A DNA stretch of 64,000 bases from an uncultured Alphaproteobacteria bacterium (lineage in GTDB: Bacteria; Pseudomonadota; Alphaproteobacteria; Paracaedibacterales; CAITNM01), in NCBI GenBank assembly GCA_903874955.1, contig CAIQTY010000025.1, forward strand, positions 8,034 to 72,033, in the 5' to 3' direction. Positions within the stretch are counted from its first letter, which is position 1. Each line of letters begins with the position of its first letter. Shown here piece by piece: positions 846-61,158 of this stretch. The notes below the pieces were generated by a model that was given only the letters and a program-made list of their open reading frames with translations, did not search any database and was not told the DNA's origin. Made by a program: the position numbers and the translations under genes.

Positions 846-1991
846 ATGCGTTTATTTAAAATCATAAAAACTTTAAGTCCCAGTCAAATTGTTACAGCAG
901 TTTTAATTGCAATTATAGGTTTTTTGGGAATTTGGTTTATAGGTCTTCGTGTGGGCAAACCAGTGATGAGATCAATTTGCATAGCAGCTATGAGCACCGA
1001 TCGTAAAGTTGATCGTGAACAACGCTTGAGGGTCGTCGAAGCGCAAACGGTAAATTTAGGTACAGTAAGCAAGCGTATTAATACTGTTGGCCAAATGCGC
1101 GCAAATGCCGTTGTCCAAATCAAATCAGAAATCGCTGGAAGAATATCTGAAATCTTGTTTACAGAGGGAGGTCTCGTTAAAAAAGGAGATCTGATCATTC
1201 GCTTTGAGGATGCAGAATACCGTGCAGCTGTTCAAATCGCCGAGGGTGAATTTGAAAATGCAAAAGCTAATCTTGAGCGCATTACCAAGCTTTATGATCA
1301 AAAAGTTGAAAGTAATAAAAAGCTTGATGAAGCAGTAGCCCAGCTAAAAATCGCAGAAGGTAAACTTCTACAAGCAAAAGCAACCCTTGAAAAAGCCAAT
1401 ATTAAGGCCCCATTCGATGGCACCATCGGAATCATCAACATAAGCTCTGGTGCGTTTGTTCAAGGTGCTACAGAGCTGGTAACTATTGTTGATAACAAAG
1501 CAGTTAAAGTCACTTTTAAAGTTCCAGAAAAAAATATTCACGATATTGGCGTTGGGCAAGTTGTCGAAGTTAAAGTCAGCGCATTTAAAAACCAAGTCTT
1601 TACGGGAACAGTAGAAGCTGTTGACGCAAAAGTTGAAACTGAGAGCCACAGCGTTCAGGTAAAGGGTATCATCCCCAATCCAGATAACCTTCTTCGAGAG
1701 GGGCTATTTGCCAATGTAAGCCTGGTTATCGGCGAAAAAGGCGATACGATGACCGTGGATGAAGCTTGCGTCGAGCGCATGGGAGAAGTTGAATTTGTTT
1801 GGATTATAGAAAGAGGTCGTGCAGATCGCAGACGTGTGTTGACTGGATCAAGAGAAAACGGACAGGTAGAAATTGTTGCAGGACTTCAACCTGGTCAAAT
1901 TGTTGTAACTTCTGGTCAATTAAAACTGAGTGATGGAGCAAAAGTTAAGATCTCTAACATGCCAGATCCAGCAGCAAAAGTAATGCTATAA
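846..1991 (+). CDS. RND efflux membrane-fusion (periplasmic adaptor) protein, HlyD/AcrA family
   Basis: 381 aa with an N-terminal TM anchor and a lipoyl/coiled-coil/beta-barrel layout typical of the family (IKSEIAGRISEI...GDLIIRFED...A.A.L..A...L.R...L; KAPFDGTIG). It lies 10 nt upstream of an AcrB-type pump gene. Confidence 0.85.
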   Translation: MRLFKIIKTLSPSQIVTAVLIAIIGFLGIWFIGLRVGKPVMRSICIAAMSTDRKVDREQRLRVVEAQTVNLGTVSKRINTVGQMRANAVVQIKSEIAGRISEILFTEGGLVKKGDLIIRFEDAEYRAAVQIAEGEFENAKANLERITKLYDQKVESNKKLDEAVAQLKIAEGKLLQAKATLEKANIKAPFDGTIGIINISSGAFVQGATELVTIVDNKAVKVTFKVPEKNIHDIGVGQVVEVKVSAFKNQVFTGTVEAVDAKVETESHSVQVKGIIPNPDNLLREGLFANVSLVIGEKGDTMTVDEACVERMGEVEFVWIIERGRADRRRVLTGSRENGQVEIVAGLQPGQIVVTSGQLKLSDGAKVKISNMPDPAAKVML

Positions 1992-2000
1992 AGGGCTATC

Positions 2001-5000
2001 ATGCGTATTTCCGAAGTTTGTATCGAGCGTCCAGTTTTTGCATGGGTGATGACCCTTGTTCTGGTGCTACTTGGATTAGTTGGTGCTTATAGACTTCCTC
2101 TTCAACAATGGCCAACGATCGCTCGTCCGACGGTTACTATTGAATCCAATCTTTCGGGGGCAAGCCCTGAAGTTGTAGAAGTAAGCCTTACGCGTATTAT
2201 TGAAGAAGCTGTTGCTGGTGTTGAAGGCATTGACCACATGGAATCAATCAGCAACTCCGAAGAGTCGAAGGTTATTATTGAATTTCGCCCTGAGCGCAAA
2301 ATGGAAGATGCCATTAACGATATCCGAGACCGCCTGGCGAAAAGCCAAGATAAACTCCCCCCAGATGCGACTCAGCCAATTTTAACAAAATCTCGCGCTG
2401 AAGACAGGGCGATCATCACGTTAGCACTTACTTCATCAACGCTTGATACCGGTGAGCTGCATGATTTTGCCAAGCGCGAACTAGAAAAAGACCTAGAAGC
2501 TGTAAGTGGTGCAGCACGCGTTGATATTTTAGGTGCAGCAGAATACGTTATGCGCGTTTATTTAAACCCCTTAAGCCTTGCCGCTTATGGGATAACAGTT
2601 TCAGAAGTTCTACACCAAATTAAAAAACAAAATATTGAAAAGCCAGCAGGAAAGCTAATCTCAAAAGATCGTGAGTATTCGGTCACTACAGTTGCATCCT
2701 TAGAAAAGCCTGAAGAATTTGAAAATCTTGTCGTTGCAAACAAAAAAGAATTCCTTGTTCGTCTACGTGACATAGGTAGGGCAGAAATTGATTCCGATGA
2801 CAAAAAAACAAAAACGTTTTTTAACGGTAATGCTGGTGTGAGTATAGGTGTTGTAAAGCAATCTAATGCAAATCCTATTGAAGTTGCCCGCGGCGTAAAA
2901 GCGGTTGTTGAAAAAGTTAAAAAGCACTTGCCAGAAAATATCACCATTCACATCGCAAGCGATACAACAACATTTATTGAACGGGCTATAAACGAAGTTT
3001 ATCGAACCCTTTTCGAAGCAACGATGTTGGTAATTTTGGTTGTGGTTTTCTTCCTGCGTTCTATTAGGGCATCGATTATACCGCTGGTTACAATTCCAGT
3101 TTCGTTGATTGGTGCATTATTCTTAATGTACCTACTCAATTTCACCTTAAACTCCCTAACTCTAATGGCAATGGTTTTGGCTATCGGTTTGGTAGTTGAC
3201 GATGCCATCGTCGTGCTTGAAAACGTGCATAGAAATCGTGAATTAGGCATGAAGCCTTTTGAAGCTGCTTATAAAGGTATTCGTGAAATCAGTTTTTCCA
3301 TCGTTGCGATGACCCTAACCCTTGTTGCGGTGTATGCTCCAATTTCTTTAGCAAATGGACGCATTGGTAAATACTTAACAGAATTCTCTATTACCCTGGC
3401 TGGAGCAGTTTTATTATCTGGGTTTGCGGCACTTACTCTTTCGCCAATGATGTGTGCACGCATGCTGGGAGATAATGATGATCACTCTCCTAAGGAAACT
3501 CCTAAAAAAGACAACCCTTCCCTTTGGCACAAATTTAAAGACTATTTTTTAACCGATACTTGGATGATGGATCTTGAAGTTAAATACGAGCGCGCTTTAA
3601 ATAAGCTTATGCCAAAACGTTTATGGGTTGCTTTAGGCGCAGTTGGAATTGCTTGCATCGGTTATGCACTGCACCAGTATTTGCCAGCAGAAACTGCTCC
3701 CTATGAAGATCAAGGGAGCATTAGAATTGAAGGACAAGCTCCTCAAAGCTCCACCCTTGGCTACACCGAGCGATATGTTCGCATGCTTGATGAAGTCATT
3801 AGCAAGATTTCATCTGTAGAACGACGCGTGATTAACATCACGAACCCTACATTTGAAGGATCAATTCAGTTAAAATCAGCTTCAGAGCGGACTCAGAGCA
3901 CAGAAGAAATTGCTGCTCAGCTGAGAGAAAATTTAGCTGAAATTACGGGTATTGAGACAAAAATTGACTCAGGTGGCGGTGGTGGAAGCAGTGATAGCGG
4001 TCGTATTGTTGACTTTGTCATCCGTGCGAATAAATCTTATCCAGAACTTCAGGCTATGGCTCAAAATCTTCACTATGAGCTAAGTACATCTGGATTTTTT
4101 AAACATATCTTTACCGATTTACGCGGCGACGTAATTGACTATACAGTTACCGTTTTACGCGATCGGTTATCTTCACTAAACATAGAGCCCGATGCAATTG
4201 CTGAAACAATTGACACCCTTATTCGCGGCCGTAAGGCGAATACGTTTAAGAAAGAAAGCAAAACCTACGAAGTTAGGGTTCAGGTTGAAAATGCCGCTCG
4301 CCAAAACCCAGATGATATCATGAACCTGTTCGTCAAAGCTGGCGATAGAGATGGCACTCTGGTACCATTATCTGAACTTGTTATTGTAAACTCACGGGCA
4401 GGACCGGTTGAAATTCGCCGAACTGATCGTGCTCGTTCAGTGATGCTTTCTGGTGAATTAAAGCCTGAATACAGTATGAAAGACGGTATTAAAATAGTTG
4501 AATCAATAGCAAAAGATTTAACAACAACAGACTACAGAATAAGCTTCATGAATGAAGCCAAACGGTTCTTAACTGAGGGACCAATGATGCAGTTGGTTTT
4601 TGGTTTAGCGATTGCGTTTATTTACTTGATCATGGCAGCTCAGTTTGAAAGCTGGCGCGATCCGTTCATTATTATGTTAAGTGTTCCGTTGTCCCTAACG
4701 GGCGCGGTGATGACCTTGGCTTTCCTTGAAAAGGGAAGCTTGAACCTGTATTCAGAAATTGGACTTGTCACCCTTATTGGTTTGATTACTAAACATGGTA
4801 TTTTAATGGTCACTTTCGCCAACCAGTTGCGCGATGAAGAAGGTGCAGGCATTGACGATGCAATTATGCGTGCGTGTAAAATCCGTCTGCGTCCTATTTT
4901 GATGACAACCTTTGCGATGGTTTTGGGCGCCCTGCCCCTAGCACTTGCAACCGGTGCAGGTGCAGAAAGCCGTAGACAGCTCGGCTGGGTTATAGTTGGT

Positions 5001-5102
5001 GGTATGACAATCGGAACAATATTCACCCTATTTGTGATTCCGGCGTTTTACAGCTACTTTACAAAGACCAACAGAGAAGCATTAAAAATTAACGTTGCAT
5101 AA
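2001..5102 (+). CDS. RND family efflux transporter permease (AcrB/AcrD/AcrF-type)
   Basis: 1033 aa with a 12-TM/2 large-loop layout. Family signatures include ERPVFAWVMTLVLVLLG, LAIGLVVDDAIVVLENV and GLVTLIGLITKHGILMV. No outer-membrane factor gene is adjacent. Confidence 0.93.
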   Translation: MRISEVCIERPVFAWVMTLVLVLLGLVGAYRLPLQQWPTIARPTVTIESNLSGASPEVVEVSLTRIIEEAVAGVEGIDHMESISNSEESKVIIEFRPERKMEDAINDIRDRLAKSQDKLPPDATQPILTKSRAEDRAIITLALTSSTLDTGELHDFAKRELEKDLEAVSGAARVDILGAAEYVMRVYLNPLSLAAYGITVSEVLHQIKKQNIEKPAGKLISKDREYSVTTVASLEKPEEFENLVVANKKEFLVRLRDIGRAEIDSDDKKTKTFFNGNAGVSIGVVKQSNANPIEVARGVKAVVEKVKKHLPENITIHIASDTTTFIERAINEVYRTLFEATMLVILVVVFFLRSIRASIIPLVTIPVSLIGALFLMYLLNFTLNSLTLMAMVLAIGLVVDDAIVVLENVHRNRELGMKPFEAAYKGIREISFSIVAMTLTLVAVYAPISLANGRIGKYLTEFSITLAGAVLLSGFAALTLSPMMCARMLGDNDDHSPKETPKKDNPSLWHKFKDYFLTDTWMMDLEVKYERALNKLMPKRLWVALGAVGIACIGYALHQYLPAETAPYEDQGSIRIEGQAPQSSTLGYTERYVRMLDEVISKISSVERRVINITNPTFEGSIQLKSASERTQSTEEIAAQLRENLAEITGIETKIDSGGGGGSSDSGRIVDFVIRANKSYPELQAMAQNLHYELSTSGFFKHIFTDLRGDVIDYTVTVLRDRLSSLNIEPDAIAETIDTLIRGRKANTFKKESKTYEVRVQVENAARQNPDDIMNLFVKAGDRDGTLVPLSELVIVNSRAGPVEIRRTDRARSVMLSGELKPEYSMKDGIKIVESIAKDLTTTDYRISFMNEAKRFLTEGPMMQLVFGLAIAFIYLIMAAQFESWRDPFIIMLSVPLSLTGAVMTLAFLEKGSLNLYSEIGLVTLIGLITKHGILMVTFANQLRDEEGAGIDDAIMRACKIRLRPILMTTFAMVLGALPLALATGAGAESRRQLGWVIVGGMTIGTIFTLFVIPAFYSYFTKTNREALKINVA

Positions 5103-7192: not shown

Positions 7193-8887
7193 TTAAGAAG
7201 AAAACTCAGCAGCTAAGTTTTGCAGCTTTTCGGTTTGGTTTTTTATTTGTTCCTTAAACAGATATGAAATTTTTTTATTATTTTCAATAAGGGACCGATT
7301 AATTGCGTTTAATTGGTCTATCTCTTTAACAAGATTATTAATTGTCATCAAACCGGAGGATTGCTCCAGTGAAGACACTGCTATCTTTTGAATCGATTCT
7401 GAAGAGTCATTTGTTACTTCAGCAATATTTTTAAGCGCTTTACCTGTGTTATTAACTGAAGCAGCGCCAAGAACAACTTCCTCTTTACTTTTTGAAATGA
7501 GGGCCTTAATTTCTTTTGAAGCTTTACTTGATCTATCAGCCAAGCTGCGCACTTCACTAGCCACAACGGCGAATCCTTTTCCTGCCTCGCCTGCCCTTGC
7601 TGCTTCTACGGAAGCATTCAAGGAAAGTAAGTTTGTTTGAAATGCAATTTCATCGATTACATTGGTGATATTTGAAATATTTTCAGAAGAGTCTGATATT
7701 CTTTGCAGACCATCGATTGCTTCATCCACAATAGCATTAGCATTGTCGGTAATTTCTTTATTTGTCTGGGATAATTCTTTTGCATGTTCAACATTTTGAT
7801 TGTTTTCATTAATTAAACTTGATACTTGTTCCATGGTAATGACAGCATCGTGAATTTTCTCTGATTGATGCTGCATACTTTCAAGAATCTCTTCACTCTT
7901 ATTTGATATGTCTTCTGCCCCCTTTGTAACGGTCATTGTCACTTCAGAAATACCTGATACAACATTTTTCAGTGTTTCTAAGGTTTTGTTTATATCTTGT
8001 TTTAAGTCAGAAAATGTTCCCCTACACTCTGCAGTAATTTGAGCTGATAAATCCCCTTTTGCAACTGCTTGAATAACATGGGATATATCCATAACGGTAT
8101 TACTTATTGATTCCATAACTTGGTTGATTCCTGTAACCAACTTTAAAATAAAACCTTCTTTTCCTTGAAGGGGAATCCTTCTAGATAATTCTAAATCAGA
8201 TAACTGGCTCAATATGGTTTCAATTTCGGCGTAAATTTCCTTTTCCTTTTCTTTTAGGGAATGTTCTTTCTTATTTTTTTCTTCTTGCTGTTTTTCAAGT
8301 TCTCTTTGAGCTTTTTCTTTTTCCATCGATTCCTGTAGTGCCTTCATAGAAACATGATTTCTCTTGATCAGGTCACATAAATAGTTTGTTAAAACGATAA
8401 GTATTCCGCATTCTACAATAACAATTACTGCATGAAGTACGACTCGTATGAAACTTGCTTCAGGAAAAACGGCATAAGAAAAACTAAAATTTAATAAAAG
8501 ATGATGAATTGCTGTTAGCAGTGCTGCTGACAGAATGACCAGCGGATCACAAAAAAATGTTAGCATCGCAAAATTCGCAAAATAATACATATGCATATCG
8601 ATTTGCCAACTACCCCTCATTTGATATACAAGCAAAGAGGTAAGAGCAATAATTGAACTAGCAGTTAAGTATCTAAAAGTTTTTGAATCTCCAGCTTTAG
8701 CAATACCTAATTTCAGAGCGAGTGCTACAGGAACCGCAGAGATGAAAAAGCTTATGATTGTTTCATACAAACAAGAATTACCCGAAAACCAGCCAGCAAA
8801 TAAAACTAAAGGTGGGTGACATAAAAGAAACCATACATAAAAAAAGCTAGCTTTTTGCCTTATTTTCGATAATTCTTCATGATGCAT
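7193..8887 (-). CDS. Methyl-accepting chemotaxis protein with a polytopic N-terminal membrane module
   Basis: 564 aa. The C-terminal signalling domain has the highly conserved hairpin tip [46 protein letters not shown]-like segment and coiled coil precede it. The first ~175 aa form about 6 hydrophobic helices with no large periplasmic loop. Confidence 0.9.
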
Positions 8888-26788: not shown

Positions 26789-26927
26789 ATTCTCTCCACA
26801 AGAATTGACTGTATAGCTTTTGATTACATTTTTCTAGAATTTTTACAAGCATCAAAGATATAAATTTCGTTCATTATATATTAACAATTTTTACGTAATG
26901 TTATTTAAAAGTAGATTGGAAATTTTT

Positions 26928-27908
26928 ATGAAAAAAGTTTTCTTGATATTAATCAAGTTCACATTTTTGTTAGTTTTAATGAATTCTTTTCATGATTTAA
27001 GTGCAGCTAGTAATCAAGCTGGAAAAAAAACTAAAGTTGTTAAAGCAAAAGCTGGAAAGAAAGTGGGTAAAAAAGCTGTTAAACCAAAAGCTGGAAAGAA
27101 AGCCAACCCTAATAGAGCGAATGCAGCAAAAGCTGGAAAGAAAGCTAACTTTAATAGAGCAAATGCAGCAAAAGGTGGCGCTACTTGTAACCCTAAGGAT
27201 CTCAGTGCAGTTGCAAAAGGATCTAAGCTTTTAGCTACTGGCAAAGCAAGTGCTGCACTAAAAGCAGCATACAAAAGAGTTGTAGCATGCTACAAAAACA
27301 ATGGGAAATTTTTTCAAGGATTAGACATTGTTTGTGATAAAACAGAGAACAATCAGAGTCTTTCCAGAGTTTTTTCAAAGATGTGTGCAAATATAAATTC
27401 TCACAAAACTCCGAGTAAAACCCAAAATAATTCTCAGGATGATAATACTAATTCGACAAACCCTGATGATTCAGAACAAGATGAAAATAACGATACAACG
27501 AATCTTGATGATTCAGAATCAGATATAAATGTAAATAACCAAATGCAAAATCAAAACAATAACCAACCAAATGGTCAAAACCAGATTAATCAATATAATA
27601 ATAGCAGGAACTATCCTCAAAACCTTGCAAACCAAACCTACCCGACCGTCAATAACATGAATTATCCTCAAAATAGTTTATACCCATATGCTTACAACAA
27701 CTACCCACAGAGCGTACAAAATCAAACTTATCCATCAGCGGGCTTAGCTCAGGGCTATAATCCTTACCCGGCGGGAAGTAATTACACTTGTAATACTAAC
27801 CCTTACCCAAATACGGCTTATGCTTCGCCGAATATTCCAAGCAACGCAATTCAAAGCTATCCCTCTAACCAAGGATTGAATACTCAAAATTACAAAAGCC
27901 CATATTAA
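26928..27908 (+). CDS. Secreted low-complexity protein: AGKK-type Lys-rich repeats, a 4-Cys module, an acidic stretch, and an Asn/Gln/Tyr/Pro-rich tail
   Basis: Start taken at MKKVFLILIKFTFLLVLMNSF (signal-like); the track begins 30 nt upstream. Repeats are KAKAGKKVGKKAVKPKAGKKANPNRANAAKAGKKANFNRANAAK. The tail is NQMQNQNNNQPNGQNQINQYNN...YPQN.YP... Confidence 0.6.
   Translation: MKKVFLILIKFTFLLVLMNSFHDLSAASNQAGKKTKVVKAKAGKKVGKKAVKPKAGKKANPNRANAAKAGKKANFNRANAAKGGATCNPKDLSAVAKGSKLLATGKASAALKAAYKRVVACYKNNGKFFQGLDIVCDKTENNQSLSRVFSKMCANINSHKTPSKTQNNSQDDNTNSTNPDDSEQDENNDTTNLDDSESDINVNNQMQNQNNNQPNGQNQINQYNNSRNYPQNLANQTYPTVNNMNYPQNSLYPYAYNNYPQSVQNQTYPSAGLAQGYNPYPAGSNYTCNTNPYPNTAYASPNIPSNAIQSYPSNQGLNTQNYKSPY
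27087..27170 (+). repeat. 2 x 42-bp in-frame tandem repeat inside the Lys-rich gene
   Basis: aaagctggaaagaaagccaaccctaatagagcgaatgcagca (27087-27128) is followed by aaagctggaaagaaagctaactttaatagagcaaatgcagca (27129-27170), with 4 mismatches. A partial unit, aaagctggaaagaaag, lies about 40 nt upstream. Confidence 0.85.
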
Positions 27909-28018
27909 GTTCTGATCGATGTAAGAAATTAATTTATAGCTCAGTTTTGTATTTTAATTATTGAATTTTTTGTGATTCATAACTATAAATACAACACATA
28001 TTTTAAATAGTTTCGTTT

Positions 28019-30178
28019 ATGTTTGGTTCTTGGAAATTAATTATTATTTTGAGTTTGGGTTTTGATTTTCTTATTGCATCGTCACAATCATCATCCCCGA
28101 TAACGGATGACACTAGATCCGCTGATTTGCGCGCAATGGTCGCACGTGAAATTAAGGTTTTTCTGGATGAGTTGGGCAGAGGATCATTCAATTTTTCAGA
28201 TAAAGAATTGTCTCTTGATAAGGACAATCCCGAACAAAAAGCCATTATGATCAGTTTAATAGGTCGGCAGTTTGCAGCAGAAAAACTTCTAAAATCCGGA
28301 GAATCTTTACAAGCTTTCAAAGTCTATGCAAATCTTTTTCATGAAACAAAAAAGCAACAGTATTTAGCCCAAATGATTGATATTGCAAGGAGTCATGACT
28401 TAATAAAGCAAGCGGAAGACGTATATGCACTTTCAGGTCTAATACTCATGCATTCAAAGCCCCCTAGTCTTCCTAAAGTGACGTTAAATAAACTTTTTGA
28501 GAGGTCATACTACGACGATCTTCCCCTTAAAACTTTGCTCACAAATGTTCAAAATTTATCGGCTGCAGTTCATCACACATCAACTGCAATTTATCACAGA
28601 TCAAGTGAAAACTATTGCAAAATTTACAAAGAGTCTTTGTGGGAGAATTTTTCTCTTCTATTTCTTGAAGATTCACCTTATTTAACTCGAAAAATATGTC
28701 TGCTATATCCTAATAACGCAAAACACAAATTACACCTTGCATGTCTAATACAAAATAAACTTGTAGACCTTAATTTTAATAATAATCAAATTGCTTCGCC
28801 TGAAGAACGTAACGCAATAGTAGAAAAATTATTTCGCGAAGTTAACAACTCGGAAGCCATATTGAGTTTAGGCAAAATGATTAAAGATAAAGACAGCAAT
28901 ATTGATCTTCATAAAAAAGTAATAACATCTGATAATCAAAGAAATGAAGCAGTGGCAGAATGTTATCGTCATGCTGCAGCTATCGATGAATATGGAAGTT
29001 CTGCTCACCTCGCTCAGCGTTTACTTGTAAAAATGATCCTCTCTAAACAGACAGACTTTGACGAAAAAAATATAAAAATAGAGGAAAGAAATCGGAATAA
29101 AATAGCTGAAAGATTAGCTCGAATTTCACAATATCCTGGGCATAAAATTGATATCGCTTTAATGATTATTAATGAACAAATAAAAGAAGATGAAAAAGGG
29201 AATCCTTATAACAAGAACGACGCTGCAAACTTGCTTAGGGCAGAAGATTCAGACGGATATAAACTCATTGCTATGATGCATCTTGCTGCAATGATTATTG
29301 ATGGAGAAATAGACAAAGATGAAAATAATCAACAAGTCAGCGACACAAATATAGCTGATACGATAGAGAGAATGATCAGAAATTCTCCTTATGGCGAAGC
29401 CAATGTCTTGATGGCAAAAGTTTACGCTAAATATGGCTGTAGCAATTATAATGATGCCGAAAGTAAGAAAAGAGAAGGAGGAATCAAGGCAAAGGAATTG
29501 GCCCTAGAACAGCTTAGGCTTGCAATTGAAAAAGGATCTTTTTGGGTCTTACCTAAATATCAAGAGCTTAAGGAAGAGTTAGATGCTATCAGCAATCAAG
29601 CAACTTGTTCAGAAGCTTCAAAAGAAGAAACACATTTAGAAAGTGAGCTTGATGATTTAGATGAAGATAGTCATGATGATGCAGAGGAAAATTACTCGCA
29701 CGAACAAAATTCAATTACGACTTCTTCATCGTCGAGCTCTTCATCCTCAAGTTCATCGGATTCAGCAGCAAAATCAACAGAGGCTTTAAGACAAGAACAA
29801 GCTAAAAAAAGTAAAACTTGGAAAGATTATGTTGCGGCGAAAAGATCTGATTGGCAAAAAAGAAAATCACAAGACCCTTTAACCTTTAGATTAGAGCAAA
29901 TGATACAAAAAAAAATTGCTGAATCTTGGAGTAAGCAAGCAATAGAAGAACGTTCTAAAATAGAATGGGTTTGGGGGGATAAAATTAATGCAGTGATTGA
30001 TGCGATTAAAACTGGTGATACTAGCTTTGGAAAACCAGAAATACTGACGGGAAATTATGCAGGATGGATGTCACGGCGCATTTCCAAAAAACACCGCTTG
30101 GTTTACCGCATTATTGAAAAAGAAGGCCAATCAGTTCTTGAAATACCAGAATGCGGCGGACACTATAATAAATCTTAG
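28019..30178 (+). CDS. Large probable exported protein: signal-like N-terminus, divergent Sel1/TPR-like repeats, acidic and poly-Ser linker, C-terminal YoeB-type toxin domain
   Basis: 719 aa. N-terminus is MFGSWKLIIILSLGFDFLIASSQ. Repeated helix pairs are of the type LAQRLLVKMILSKQTDFDEKN / MHLAAMIIDGEIDKDENNQ / NVLMAKVYAKYGCSNYND. The linker is TTSSSSSSSSSSSDS. The last ~85 aa align with E. coli YoeB (see next feature). Confidence 0.8.
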   Translation: MFGSWKLIIILSLGFDFLIASSQSSSPITDDTRSADLRAMVAREIKVFLDELGRGSFNFSDKELSLDKDNPEQKAIMISLIGRQFAAEKLLKSGESLQAFKVYANLFHETKKQQYLAQMIDIARSHDLIKQAEDVYALSGLILMHSKPPSLPKVTLNKLFERSYYDDLPLKTLLTNVQNLSAAVHHTSTAIYHRSSENYCKIYKESLWENFSLLFLEDSPYLTRKICLLYPNNAKHKLHLACLIQNKLVDLNFNNNQIASPEERNAIVEKLFREVNNSEAILSLGKMIKDKDSNIDLHKKVITSDNQRNEAVAECYRHAAAIDEYGSSAHLAQRLLVKMILSKQTDFDEKNIKIEERNRNKIAERLARISQYPGHKIDIALMIINEQIKEDEKGNPYNKNDAANLLRAEDSDGYKLIAMMHLAAMIIDGEIDKDENNQQVSDTNIADTIERMIRNSPYGEANVLMAKVYAKYGCSNYNDAESKKREGGIKAKELALEQLRLAIEKGSFWVLPKYQELKEELDAISNQATCSEASKEETHLESELDDLDEDSHDDAEENYSHEQNSITTSSSSSSSSSSSSDSAAKSTEALRQEQAKKSKTWKDYVAAKRSDWQKRKSQDPLTFRLEQMIQKKIAESWSKQAIEERSKIEWVWGDKINAVIDAIKTGDTSFGKPEILTGNYAGWMSRRISKKHRLVYRIIEKEGQSVLEIPECGGHYNKS
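29921..30175 (+). other. YoeB/Txe-like (RelE/ParE superfamily) mRNA-interferase domain at the C-terminus of the 719-aa ORF
   Basis: The query is ESWSKQAIEERSKIEWVWGDKINAVIDAIKTGDTSFGKPEILTGNYAGWMSRRISKKHRLVYRIIEKEGQSVLEIPECGGHYNKS. E. coli YoeB from memory is LIWSEESWDDYLYWQETDKRIVKKINELIKDTRRTPFEGKGKPEPLKHNLSGFWSRRITEEHRLVYAVTDDSLLIAACRYHY. Shared elements are GKPE.L, G.WSRRI..(E/K)HRLVY and terminal HY. Equivalents of Glu46, Arg65, His83 and Tyr84 are all present. Confidence 0.8.
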
Positions 30179-30185
30179 GGACTGC

Positions 30186-30920
30186 CTACTTAATGCCGCT
30201 CCAAATACGACGCATGGTTGCGTAGAAAAGTCCAACCATAACGAGTAAGTATAAAAGAACCTTAAAGCCTAAGCGTTTGCGTTGTTCAATTTCAGGTTCA
30301 CTTGCCCAGGCTAGGAACGTGGTCACATCCCTGGCCATTTGATCAATCGTTGCTTTAGTACCATCATTATAGATTACTAACCCCTCGCTTAGGGGAGGCG
30401 CCATCGAGATAGCATGACCTGGAAAATATTCGTTGTAATACTGGCCAGGATTTAATTTTAAATTCGGATTCTCTTTAAAGCCAGTTAGTATCGCATACAC
30501 ATAATCCGCTCCATGTTCACGTGCTTTTATAATTAATGATTGATCTGGTGGCAGAGCTCCATTATTTGCAGCTCTTGCTTGTTTATCATTAGCATAGGGG
30601 CTTGGGATATAATCTGAGGGTCTACCAGGACGTTCGAACATGTCACCAGAATCGTTTGGTCCATCCTTGATTTGATACTGAGATGCCAATACTTTAATTT
30701 CAGCCTCCGTTAACCCTAAGGCTTTTAGGTGGCGAAACGAAATATACTTAAGGCTATGACACGTTGAACAAACCTGTTTATAGACTTGAAATCCCCTTTG
30801 CAATGCGCTGCGGTCAAAAGTGCCATTTGGTTTTTTAAAACTCCAGTCTTGCTTAGGAGGTGTAGGGGCATGTTCAGCCATCAAACTTGTAAAAGCCAGG
30901 CAAATTAATAATAGTTTCAT
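30186..30920 (-). CDS. petC: Cytochrome c1 of the bc1 complex
   Basis: 244 aa with a signal peptide, heme motif CSTCHS, a C-terminal TM anchor, and a 4-nt overlap with petB. Confidence 0.93.
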
Positions 30921-59301: not shown

Positions 59302-61158
59302 ATGAAATATTTAATTTTTTTATTTATGATGGCGAACTCTCTCTTTGGTCTAGCTTCAGGAGGCGGAGGCGGTGGGGGAAGTGGAAGCGGGGGTAATAAT
59401 AGTGCAACTTCTGCATCTAATGACAACGCTTCTGGATCGTCTAGCAATTCTGCTAGCAGCAGGAATTCTGGAAATAATAACTCGGGAAATAATCAAAGCG
59501 ACGATGAAGATACAGAATCTGGTGATGGATTTGGACTTATTGAAGCTATTGGTAAAGGCATTGGTAATGCTATAGGTCGTGGGGGAAATTCAGGCAGAAA
59601 ATCTAGAAGGGGACAAGCAATAGAACCAGGAACTCATCCTGATGAAATAGATGAAGATGATGAAACTGAAGGAAATCCTGGAGCACCAGGAGATGAATCA
59701 GACGGGTCGGATGAAACGAATGGATCACAAGGATATCAAGGACAACCTGGTGCAGAGCCAGATGAACAATACGGAGCTGATCCACAAGCACAGGATGGGG
59801 ATCTTGATGCTTATGGCAATCCTATTCCAAGAAAGCCGGTAGTAGCCAAACCAAACAAAAAAATTGGTAAAAGACCTGCTAATTCTATGATAGGTAATCC
59901 AAAAGCTAAAAACAGGAGGAAAGCTAATCTGAATCAAGTTGCAGTTTGTGGCTTAAAATGCCGTGCAGATAAAGCAACCGCAGAATTAGATAAAAAGCCA
60001 TTTATTCCAACAGAACAGATCATATTCCCATCAAGTCAAAGTCAAAGTCAAAGTCAAAGTCAAAGTCAAAGCAAGAACCAGACAATGATTAAAGCACCAA
60101 CTACTCAGCAAAATAATCTGAGAATTCTTTCGCTTTTGCAAAAATTACAAAATGCCATAGAGGAAAAACAAGATTCATCGCTTCCTGAATTTTCAGCCAA
60201 TAGACTTTTAAGACCCAGCGATAAAGATGATAGTATTCCTGCATTGCGAGAAATTTTGTGCTCATTAGGGTGTCTCGACCAGGCCAATGGCTCACCATTT
60301 TTTGATATGGAATTGGAAAAAGGCGTGAAGTCCTTTCAGGCATCCCATTGTTTAACGCCTGATGGTATTATCGGCCAAGATACAAAAGCTAAATTAAACT
60401 GGAGCTACGAGAAGCGCTTAAAGATGGTAAAAGACGCCATAGAAAAAATAAAAGCTTTGATCTTTACCGATCACACAATAATCGTAAACATTCCGACCTA
60501 CAAACTTTATGCCTTTGAAAAAGAAACTCCTAAAATGCAAATGAAGGTTATTGTTGGAAAATCTCAGCGTCAGACTCCTTTGATGACAAGTTATATTAAT
60601 GGCATTGAATATAATCCGATCTGGGTTGTACCAAAGACTATTCTTTTTGAAGATGAGCTCCCTAAAATCCAAGAAGATCCGAGAAAATTCTTTGCTCAGA
60701 ACAGGGACTTCCAAATTTTCGATGAAGACGATAACCCTGTTAATCCTAAAAAAATCGATTGGAATAGTTTTGATCTTCATAACTTCCCCTACACGCTTAA
60801 GCAAAAATCAGGGAAGAATAATGCGCTTGGATTGCTAAAATTTAATTTGCAAACTCATGACTCTATATACCTTCATGACACAGCTCACCGTGAATTATTT
60901 AGTCAATTTTCAAGAGCTTTATCATCAGGATGCATACGTGTTGAAAAAGCAGGAAAACTTGCATCTTGGCTTTTAAACGTTACGACAAATCAGCTAAAAC
61001 AAAAAATTGCCAAAAGTGGCACAACAACAGAGCCATTAAAAGAAAATGTAACGGTTCATATTACGTATTTACCTGTTTGGGTAGAGGAAGACGAAGGAAA
61101 GTTATACACCATATGGGGAGAAGATCCTTATAACCAGTATCCAAAGGAATTCTATTAA
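59302..61158 (+). CDS. L,D-transpeptidase (YcbB/YkuD-type) with a PG-binding domain and a ~260-aa disordered N-terminal region
   Basis: 618 aa with a signal peptide and Gly/Ser/Asn/Asp-rich low complexity. PG_binding_1-like segment is LEKGVKSFQASHCLTPDGIIGQDTKAKL. The YkuD catalytic region is IYLHDTAHRELFSQFSRALSSGCIRVE (His...Cys). Confidence 0.85.
   Translation: MKYLIFLFMMANSLFGLASGGGGGGGSGSGGNNSATSASNDNASGSSSNSASSRNSGNNNSGNNQSDDEDTESGDGFGLIEAIGKGIGNAIGRGGNSGRKSRRGQAIEPGTHPDEIDEDDETEGNPGAPGDESDGSDETNGSQGYQGQPGAEPDEQYGADPQAQDGDLDAYGNPIPRKPVVAKPNKKIGKRPANSMIGNPKAKNRRKANLNQVAVCGLKCRADKATAELDKKPFIPTEQIIFPSSQSQSQSQSQSQSKNQTMIKAPTTQQNNLRILSLLQKLQNAIEEKQDSSLPEFSANRLLRPSDKDDSIPALREILCSLGCLDQANGSPFFDMELEKGVKSFQASHCLTPDGIIGQDTKAKLNWSYEKRLKMVKDAIEKIKALIFTDHTIIVNIPTYKLYAFEKETPKMQMKVIVGKSQRQTPLMTSYINGIEYNPIWVVPKTILFEDELPKIQEDPRKFFAQNRDFQIFDEDDNPVNPKKIDWNSFDLHNFPYTLKQKSGKNNALGLLKFNLQTHDSIYLHDTAHRELFSQFSRALSSGCIRVEKAGKLASWLLNVTTNQLKQKIAKSGTTTEPLKENVTVHITYLPVWVEEDEGKLYTIWGEDPYNQYPKEFY
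60034..60069 (+). repeat. Perfect hexanucleotide microsatellite (AGTCAA)x6, in frame (SQSQSQSQSQSQ)
   Basis: Read directly: agtcaa repeated six times at 60034-60069, inside the L,D-transpeptidase gene between the disordered region and the PG-binding domain. Confidence 0.95.

Follow-up and report, generated by a model that had tools for sequence, protein, structure and literature searches.

Type II toxin-antitoxin (TA) RNases of the RelE/YoeB group are, to our knowledge, regarded as intracellular and self-directed, and as always needing an antitoxin. The window that we analyzed (a stretch of 64,000 nucleotides [nt] from contig CAIQTY010000025.1 of an uncultured alphaproteobacterium) carries a gene that raises the question of what such a toxin does at the very end of a long, exported-looking protein with no antitoxin gene beside it. 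We found that this gene belongs to a family of exported-looking repeat proteins of protist endosymbionts that end in an intact YoeB domain and have no antitoxin nearby. We lean toward the view that the product of the window gene is an effector, modular in build and probably exported through Sec, of a bacterium of the Paracaedibacteraceae (near Candidatus Finniella) that lives inside protists; its warhead would be a ribosome-dependent mRNase. That view starts from what is observed: the architecture, its recurrence, the intact catalytic set, the lack of an adjacent partner gene, and the symbiotic hosts.

The Sel1-like repeat (SLR)-YoeB fusion gene (28019..30178, + strand, as are all features within it) is complete: both the list of open reading frames (ORFs) and the sequence itself give a product of 719 amino acids (aa), an ATG start, and a TAG stop at 30176-30178. 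Translation begins at the first ATG following a stop codon, and this start is backed by the spacing between Met1 and an FL..LG.G.F.F.D motif, which is equal in a homologue (P0004). The ORF, a gap of 110 nt upstream of it, and a convergent cytochrome c1 gene (petC) 7 nt past its stop codon are all present as a preliminary description of the window had reported.

Judged by hidden Markov model (HMM), modeled fold, and catalytic residues, all of which were positive, the C-terminal ~84 aa are a genuine YoeB-type BECR RNase domain (aa 633-716, 29915..30166). Pfam PF06769 (YoeB_toxin), whose gathering score is 27, matched aa 654-716 of the full protein at 36.9 bits (E = 3.7e-9) and the C-terminal 125 aa alone at 41.2 bits. 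A phmmer search of the PDB aligned Agrobacterium YoeB (6n90) with aa 626-707 (E = 3.5e-10) and gave further matches to Escherichia coli YoeB (2a6q), Staphylococcus aureus YoeB, and Mycobacterium tuberculosis RelK; a profile built from the family covers the full length of solved YoeB chains (E = 1e-19 to 1e-16). The NCBIfam equivalog model TIGR02116 (toxin_Txe_YoeB), with a cutoff of 51.8 bits, was missed at 39.2 bits for the full protein and 44 bits for the C terminus, with matches limited to profile positions 21-80.

The equivalents of E. coli Glu46, Arg65, His83, and Tyr84, located by alignment columns and read as codons in the DNA, are E674 in GKPE (30038-30040), R693 in KHRLVY (30095-30097), and H715 and Y716 in GGHY (30161-30163 and 30164-30166). 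In an alignment of 84 sequences, the window protein keeps the consensus residue at all 12 near-invariant YoeB columns (G671, P673, E674, L676, G682, S685, R686, I688, R693, Y696, H715, and Y716). An AlphaFold2 (AF2) model of aa 585-719 based on the same alignment reached a mean predicted local distance difference test (pLDDT) score of 89.2, with a core above 92, and when it was compared with the PDB by Foldseek the first eight matches were all members of the YoeB family, with target-normalized template modeling (TM) scores of 0.78-0.83 and root mean square deviations of 2.2-2.9 Å. The model conforms to the YoeB/RelE-type BECR fold, with β1 and two helices ahead of a 3-4-stranded sheet. The domain is ~33% identical to solved YoeB from E. 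coli (2a6q/2a6r) and Agrobacterium (6n90), with TM scores of 0.80-0.83 and root mean square deviations of 2.2-2.6 Å. The preliminary description had recognized a YoeB domain at the C terminus, had named its four catalytic residues by comparison with E. coli YoeB, and had proposed superposing a model on solved YoeB; the Pfam score, the PDB matches, the near-invariant columns, and the Foldseek comparison agree with it on each point. Weaker Foldseek matches included the Xenorhabdus insecticidal toxin Txp40 (7xbj; E = 1.2e-3) and Cami1, a CARF-RelE ribosome-dependent RNase (8phj), both of them larger proteins in which a RelE/YoeB-like fold is embedded.

Ahead of the toxin domain lie regions that recur, in the same order, in related proteins. 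The first 22 residues (28019..28084; MFGSWKLIIILSLGFDFLIASS) resemble a signal peptide, with a putative cleavage site after ASS and before QSSS: hydrophobicity and inspection by eye reveal a single Lys, a hydrophobic core of 14 residues with a Kyte-Doolittle mean of 2.5, and small residues at −3 and −1, and the hydrophobicity maximum of the whole protein falls at aa 7-21. Next comes a helical head domain (aa ~26-250, 28094..28768) with the motif EI..FL.ELGRGSF.FSD, which is conserved in the closest subfamily; phmmer alignments to five homologues (P0004, P0006, P0007, P0028, and P0081) span query aa 29-400. It is followed by a degenerate Sel1-like repeat region (aa ~255-475, 28781..29443). Pfam returned no Sel1 or tetratricopeptide repeat (TPR) match in the window protein at E < 1. 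A repeat HMM, made by iterating hmmsearch and hmmbuild over the family (139 units; core consensus RYEVAARLYRKSKTPEALYNLAVLIEE), detected two significant units, at aa 264-290 (28808-28888; independent E value, 3.8e-4) and aa 308-319 (28940-28975; 9e-4), and more degenerate units can be followed by eye to about aa 475. Positions 86-130 of the family profile also gave weak matches to Sel1 proteins of known structure (6ork, E = 2.7e-4; SEL1L, E = 1e-3). The ~500 aa of Sel1/TPR-like repeats that had been described are thus divergent Sel1-like repeats in kind, of overstated extent, and preceded by a nonrepeat helical head of ~230 aa.

The repeats end in a helical cap (aa ~480-525, 29456..29593), defined from the family alignment by the consensus AL...A...G...A...Y..LK and a near-invariant G506. 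A disordered, low-complexity linker, acidic and Ser rich in composition (aa 526-584, 29594..29770), then leads to a basic helical segment immediately before the toxin domain (aa 585-632, 29771..29914). Residues 521-600 include 19 Asp or Glu and 22 Ser and carry a net charge of −13; the Ser run counts 12 residues (aa 569-580, 29723-29758) rather than the 13 first reported, and equivalent acidic/Ser tracts are found in relatives. The basic segment contains a motif, W[KR]x(10-14)W.[EK]K, that we read in the sequences of the closer relatives, directly before their YoeB domains; AF2 places helices at aa 586-616 and 620-628 (pLDDT of ~70-89), and aa 601-635 are basic. It could serve as a pretoxin, translocation, RNA-binding, or cis-inhibitory element. 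The more distant subfamily has, at this position, a Lys-rich ARKK.KA.KK.QKK tract that resembles a nuclear localization signal. Single-sequence AF2 modeling of the whole protein gave a pLDDT of 41.7, and we describe the N-terminal 580 aa only as mostly helical. The Sec-signal-like N terminus, the acidic block, and the basic (Lys/Arg-rich) linker had all been noted before, and hydrophobicity, the −3/−1 residues, and composition bear them out.

The preliminary description had proposed looking for the fusion in related genomes; a wider search showed that it is not a one-off but has a family. With phmmer, 1.84 billion cluster representatives were scanned exhaustively, and 145 matched. About 26 of these are long proteins (485-1359 aa) that align to the N-terminal region of the query, end in a YoeB domain, or both, and that domain lies within a few residues of the C terminus; canonical YoeBs of ~85-95 aa rank lower in the list (34-48 bits), and one match is a fragment of the window protein itself. 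A word-indexed homology search found nothing with the full-length query, probably because low-complexity tracts swamped the candidates, and two short matches with the C-terminal query. The long proteins share a template: a signal-peptide-like N terminus, a helical head, Sel1-like repeats, a cap, an acidic/Ser tract, a basic tract, and a YoeB domain ending in GHY. There are 2-10 repeats of ~37 aa, in which the core RYEVAARLYRKSKTPEALYNLAVLIEE is followed by a G-K-x-x-x-D-E-x-G linker. By heuristic assessment, nearly all full-length members have signal-peptide-like N termini, some with a lipobox-like L-I-S-C. PF06769 matches 24 of the 26 aligned members, and Pfam Sel1 matches 5 of the 26 (best E = 4.3e-7). 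Two proteins (P0100 and P0103) carry the same YoeB tail on unrelated, nonrepeat N termini, and two N-terminal homologues (P0007 and P0025) that lack the tail may be truncated or contig-end products.

Among the 26 long members, Arg65 and His83 of the catalytic set never vary, whereas Tyr84 is kept in 25 (Ile in one) and Glu46 in 18. A crude neighbor-joining tree of 121 domains, built from a sample biased toward relatives of the query and not robust, places the window protein in a clade of 35 of which 30 are longer than 120 aa; it is consistent with a dedicated lineage of fused YoeB. Among stand-alone YoeBs, the closest is P0001, a protein of 93 aa that shares 54% identity with the domain in the window; its gene starts 32 nt past that of an ISL3 transposase, on a contig of 1.8 kb (L085 87-1647), and may be what is left of the 3' end of a long gene broken by an insertion sequence (IS), not a true stand-alone toxin.

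The named members are WP_010302372.1 from Candidatus Odyssella thessalonicensis, whose reference genome derives from an isolate; MBX3456838.1 from a Paracaedibacteraceae metagenome-assembled genome (MAG); MHB9147667.1 from a Candidatus Amoebophilus MAG (Bacteroidota); and others from MAGs labeled "Alphaproteobacteria" or "Pseudomonadota." All were named automatically, for example "type II toxin-antitoxin system YoeB family toxin" or "hypothetical protein"; the former label is misleading for these proteins of 500-1300 aa.

We examined nine genomic contexts, that of the window and those of eight other loci. The family genes sit among housekeeping genes, and the gene downstream is usually convergent. 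In one genome (L087 441-2635 and 3403-8004), tandem paralogues of 746 and 667 aa lie between groES/frr and pyrH-tsf-rpsB, adjoined by two proteins with eukaryote-like Myb_DNA-binding domains; at the same frr/pyrH locus in a relative (L093/L094) there is one YoeB-bearing copy, together with an upstream ORF of 490 aa with no Pfam match. Further single copies follow dnaE, lie beside ung, or stand between fliF and gmk; another has IS elements and an unrelated ParE/ribbon-helix-helix (RHH) pair nearby; and Odyssella has two paralogues (927 and 933 aa). The Amoebophilus member (1359 aa; locus L096 1-14080) is near a Sel1 plus leucine-rich repeat (LRR) protein, an unannotated protein of 721 aa, an IS1 transposase, and a large Mob_Pre/Toprim protein, a neighborhood that suggests carriage by mobile elements and transfer between symbionts of the Bacteroidota and the Alphaproteobacteria.

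The organism of the window belongs to the Paracaedibacteraceae (Holosporales), its PetC sharing 84% identity with the PetC of a Candidatus Finniella inopinata MAG and 82-83% with the PetC proteins of Finniella and Odyssella MAGs. We expected an orthologue of the fusion gene next to petC in relatives and found none in 80 loci. In the closest Finniella/Odyssella-like relatives (L005-L011), the slot convergent with petC is occupied by unrelated, species-specific, signal-peptide-like proteins of 148-181 aa (e.g., L005 10677-11126 and L010 10733-11278), and it resembles a hot spot for lineage-specific secreted proteins.

No antitoxin gene was found with the toxin. The 110-nt intergenic stretch (27909..28018) is AT rich and contains no ORF of ≥30 aa, and no same-strand ORF lies downstream, where petC converges. 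A tblastn search of the 64-kb window, with approximate sequences of YefM (E. coli and M. tuberculosis), Axe, Phd, RelB, and DinJ as queries, gave nothing credible. Weak matches at 51.1-51.6, 21.2-21.5, and 60.2 kb were rejected as chance, since all fall inside mreB, lpdA, and a YkuD gene, on the antisense strand. A Pfam scan (E ≤ 0.1) of 36 ORFs, made up of all small ORFs that lie outside long genes and all those, on either strand, that overlap the fusion gene, found no antitoxin family, its only matches being L31, IF-1, glutaredoxin, BCCP, and DUF1289. Nor did small or unannotated ORFs flanking the other family genes match any antitoxin or immunity family, and no partner gene recurs across the nine contexts. 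The claim that no antitoxin gene lies upstream of or adjacent to the fusion gene therefore stands.

The fusion gene is not a yefM-yoeB type II module. It shares with that module the YoeB fold and the Glu46/Arg65/His83/Tyr84 set, but both defining features of the module fail: the toxin there is small (~84-95 aa) and stands alone, whereas here it forms the last 84 aa of a 719-aa protein, and neither this gene nor those at the other family loci has an upstream Phd/YefM gene or any operon partner.

A closer parallel is found among the symbiont effectors described by Zhang et al. in 2012 (PMC3482391), which combine Sel1, ankyrin, or TPR repeats with C-terminal toxin domains and have no immunity genes. 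Such effectors occur in Amoebophilus, Odyssella, Waddlia, and Wolbachia, carry a signal peptide, and have as warheads OTU (Tox-PLOTU), Tox-ODYAM1, latrotoxin-CTD, and other domains (PMC3482391). The fusion follows the same template, likewise with no immunity gene, in the same organisms (Odyssella and an Amoebophilus MAG), and it combines the features of a host-directed repeat effector: an intracellular symbiont as its source, a signal-peptide-like N terminus, repeats, a terminal toxin, no immunity gene, and paralogues. It differs in its warhead, a classical YoeB-type TA domain, which is not listed there; YoeB is never mentioned in that paper, which defines Tox-RelE and reports a single case of classical RelE among polymorphic toxins, in Paenibacillus elgii (PMC3482391).

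A 2025 review of the Holosporales (PMC11909080) mentions neither YoeB nor Sel1 effectors; a 2026 preprint classifying BECR proteins ties RelE-like proteins mostly to intracellular TA systems; and a screen for cargos of extracellular contractile injection systems lists a few YoeB-annotated predicted cargos, without analysis. Our full-text searches combining YoeB, Sel1, and effector returned nothing, in a coverage that excludes most subscription journals. Within the searchable literature, then, the SLR-YoeB family is undescribed, and the general class of repeat-plus-toxin effectors is already known (PMC3482391). The novelty suggested earlier for this arrangement accordingly narrows: the concept has been published, and what appears to be novel is that a classical YoeB TA toxin serves as the warhead; the family concerned, judging from the sequences at hand, spans the Paracaedibacteraceae and Amoebophilus.

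How might such an effector work? The putative signal peptide would send the nascent protein through Sec and out of the bacterial cytoplasm, so that the toxin domain, synthesized last, would not build up near the ribosomes of its producer; we propose that, because the protein is exported away from these ribosomes, no antitoxin is needed. The Sel1-like repeat region may act as a scaffold or target-binding module; Sel1-like solenoids are protein-protein interaction scaffolds that are common in secreted factors of intracellular bacteria. Released into the host cytoplasm, the YoeB domain would enter the ribosomal A site and cleave mRNA, depressing translation in the host, its organelles, or coresident bacteria. 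Paracaedibacteraceae live free in the host cytoplasm (PMC11909080), so that released proteins would meet host ribosomes directly, and a eukaryotic target is plausible because the related RelE cuts mRNA on 80S ribosomes whose A site is vacant (PMC3632111). The genomic settings are effector-like: there are tandem paralogues; Myb, Sel1, and LRR proteins and mobile-element genes as neighbors; and no copy in the petC slot of relatives. The preliminary description had left two readings side by side, a secreted effector cargo and a toxin held in check in cis. The comparative evidence (a conserved family, no recurring partner, tandem paralogues, and intracellular hosts) favors the former and leaves cis restraint the less supported.

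Several points weigh against the effector reading. Secretion, RNase activity, and toxicity are all properties that we infer from sequence; the signal was assessed from hydrophobicity and by eye, and there is an Asp in its h-region. A Sec signal takes a protein no farther than the periplasm, and we saw no type II secretion system or other outer-membrane route in the window. Secretion by the type VI system (T6SS), typical of the Holosporales, does not use Sec signals; a role as T6SS cargo, considered because that system is conserved in the Holosporales, seems unlikely, because the N terminus is of the Sec type and the protein has no PAAR, VgrG, or Hcp features. We know of no YoeB that works on 80S ribosomes, only RelE having been shown to do so. 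The repeats of the window protein are too degenerate for a Pfam call, and an antitoxin could be encoded elsewhere in the genome, since the search covered 64 kb. Finally, 8 of the 26 long members (e.g., P0014, P0016, P0022, P0038, and P0100) have Lys in place of the catalytic Glu (G.PK.L), so that members of the family may differ in activity; the Glu is kept in the window protein. We hold only tentatively, as a possibility worth stating, the fuller proposal of a distinct lineage of YoeB-type ribosome-dependent RNases that serve as warheads of exported Sel1-repeat effectors, have spread horizontally between unrelated protist endosymbionts (the Paracaedibacteraceae and Amoebophilus), do without antitoxin by virtue of export, and cleave mRNA on host 80S or organellar ribosomes; were this so, they would be a candidate molecular basis for the host-manipulation, "killer," or "addiction" phenotypes of Holosporales-type symbionts.

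Among the alternatives, the one that survives best, albeit as an unlikely one, is a cis-regulated intracellular toxin: the N terminus would be a membrane anchor, the repeats would sense phage or stress or would mask the toxin, and the toxin would act on the cell's own ribosomes with a built-in antitoxin, either the N-terminal region or the basic helix. The failure to find a separate antitoxin fits this proposal, as does the conserved basic helix immediately before the toxin domain. Cami1 (8phj) offers a precedent, in that it too has a RelE-superfamily RNase fold fused to a large N-terminal part, in its case a regulatory domain, and no separate antitoxin. It is a cytoplasmic protein, activated by cyclic oligoadenylate and encoded in type III CRISPR loci; the fusion, in contrast, has no CARF domain, CRISPR context, or match to a defense family. 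Along with Cami1, the known multidomain proteins of the RelE superfamily that are cis-regulated or fused to an antitoxin include YefM-YoeB and RHH-YoeB fusions and the transmembrane ToxM, described by Gerdes in 2025, who set aside multidomain BECR proteins with no identifiable antitoxin (PMC11980606). In those fusions, as here, the YoeB/BECR domain is part of a larger polypeptide, but they contain a recognizable antitoxin domain or one that binds DNA, or else have an antitoxin gene as partner (ToxR), and the window protein does neither: Pfam detected no Phd/YefM, RHH, or helix-turn-helix domain within it. Moreover, the N termini of the family resemble cleavable signal peptides, some of them lipobox-like, rather than internal transmembrane anchors; the PADLOC defense library gave no match; the neighbors are housekeeping genes, not defense islands; and effectors better account for the variable Sel1-like repeats, the tandem paralogues, and a distribution restricted to intracellular symbionts.

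We consider it a little less likely still that the protein is an interbacterial polymorphic toxin, which would kill competing symbionts in the same host by cleaving mRNA on 70S ribosomes, with its immunity encoded elsewhere or by a novel small ORF. The proven substrate of YoeB is the bacterial ribosome, which counts for this possibility, as does the occurrence of the same YoeB tail on differing N termini. The fusion also has the leader, repeats, and C-terminal BECR toxin of the polymorphic-toxin template, of which Tox-RelE is an existing example, and Odyssella is an endosymbiont that carries immunity genes and true polymorphic toxins (PMC3482391). Like the fusion, for which export is predicted, the Tox-RelE protein of Paenibacillus elgii is an exported multidomain protein with a type II TA RNase fold as its C-terminal toxin; it belongs, however, to a free-living Firmicute and has RHS repeats, a HINT peptidase, and the immunity protein Imm54, whereas the fusion has Sel1-like repeats, no peptidase or immunity gene, a domain of the YoeB rather than the RelE subfamily, and a multimember family in endosymbionts. 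A similar contrast holds for Candidatus Bodocaedibacter vickermanii, a symbiont of Bodo saltans for which Midha et al. in 2021 reported putative polymorphic toxin systems and for which secreted toxins are proposed to lie behind host dependence or "addiction" (PMC8163844). Both organisms are protist symbionts of the Paracaedibacteraceae, and secreted toxins are proposed there too, but the Bodocaedibacter loci have toxin-immunity pairs, orphan modules, HNH or metallopeptidase toxins, and a proposed T6SS route, and YoeB and Sel1 effectors go unmentioned in that paper (PMC8163844). Set against a classical polymorphic toxin, then, the fusion has a putative trafficking signal, central repeats, and a C-terminal toxin domain, and it lacks a downstream immunity gene and cassettes: the next gene is the convergent petC, no adjacent partner recurs in the nine contexts, the small flanking ORFs match no family, no orphan toxin or immunity cassettes were seen, and Pfam detected no RHS, PAAR, VgrG, TpsA, or MafB-N trafficking domain in the fusion protein or its relatives.

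It is also improbable that the domain is repurposed or decaying, that is, a YoeB fold serving as an RNA- or ribosome-binding or structural module with no nuclease toxicity, or a lineage-specific relic nearing loss. The Glu-to-Lys changes and the single Tyr-to-Ile change among the long members point this way, as do the strong degeneration of the window repeats, the absence of the gene from the closest sequenced relatives, and the missed NCBIfam equivalog threshold. On the other hand, the window protein is intact at the four catalytic residues and at all 12 near-invariant positions; Arg and His are invariant throughout the long members; Lys likewise replaces Glu46 in 6 of the 82 canonical YoeBs of short length; and several samples have the ORF intact and with 100% identity, while the neighboring gene varies. 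An assembly or frameshift artifact joining a repeat-protein gene to a stand-alone yoeB, suggested by the error-prone low-complexity linker (Ser run and acidic tract) between the two parts and raised as a check in the preliminary description, can be dismissed with near certainty, since the identical 719-aa ORF is found with the same neighbors on at least six independent contigs from several samples and assemblers (including ENA ERZ19566111, ERZ27313292, and ERZ19525865 and Logan ERR11454041) and ~26 homologues have the same continuous architecture, one of them in an isolate-derived reference genome.

Should the effector reading prove right, with the protein both delivered and active, a TA toxin would have been converted into a host-directed translation inhibitor, and the family would offer a natural experiment on how a ribosome-dependent RNase can be produced safely with no antidote. 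It would also provide a concrete and testable effector for Holosporales-type symbionts, whose secreted molecules are described as unknown (PMC11909080). The Odyssella-Acanthamoeba system allows direct testing and could bear on the effectors behind the dependence of Holosporales and their hosts.

As for expression of the fusion gene, a promoter-like sequence, TTGAAT (27961-27966), 17 nt, and TATAAA (27984-27989), was recognized by eye ~30 nt 5' of the ATG at 28019. A scan for consensus promoters reported none in 27909..28018, with fewer promoter-like sites than in shuffled sequences; it missed the sequence seen by eye because its rule demands a T at the last −10 position. A terminator scan found none, and no Shine-Dalgarno-like sequence was seen before the start codon. 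Beyond the fusion gene, petC (30186..30920; Pfam Cytochrom_C1) is followed by petB and petA. Immediately 5' of the fusion gene, a 336-aa ORF (26898..27908, + strand) has a signal-peptide-like N terminus, AGKK/KA-rich repeats, and a long low-complexity tail rich in N, Q, P, and Y, and it has no match in Pfam or PADLOC. Its length is polymorphic across assemblies (336 versus 323 aa, 96% identity), while the adjoining fusion gene is 100% identical.

Elsewhere in the window, another low-complexity, signal-peptide-bearing protein is encoded at 59302..61158 (+ strand): a YkuD L,D-transpeptidase with PG_binding_1 and an N-terminal extension of ~300 aa that is G/S/N rich and includes acidic tracts and an (SQ)n run. 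The window also encodes an RND efflux pair (HlyD-like plus AcrB; 846..5102, + strand) and a methyl-accepting chemotaxis protein (7193..8887, − strand). A family member in another genome (L092 968-4784) adjoins the flagellar genes fliF, fliG, and fliN; with the chemotaxis protein here and the flagellar neighbors there, these symbionts retain genes for motility and chemotaxis.

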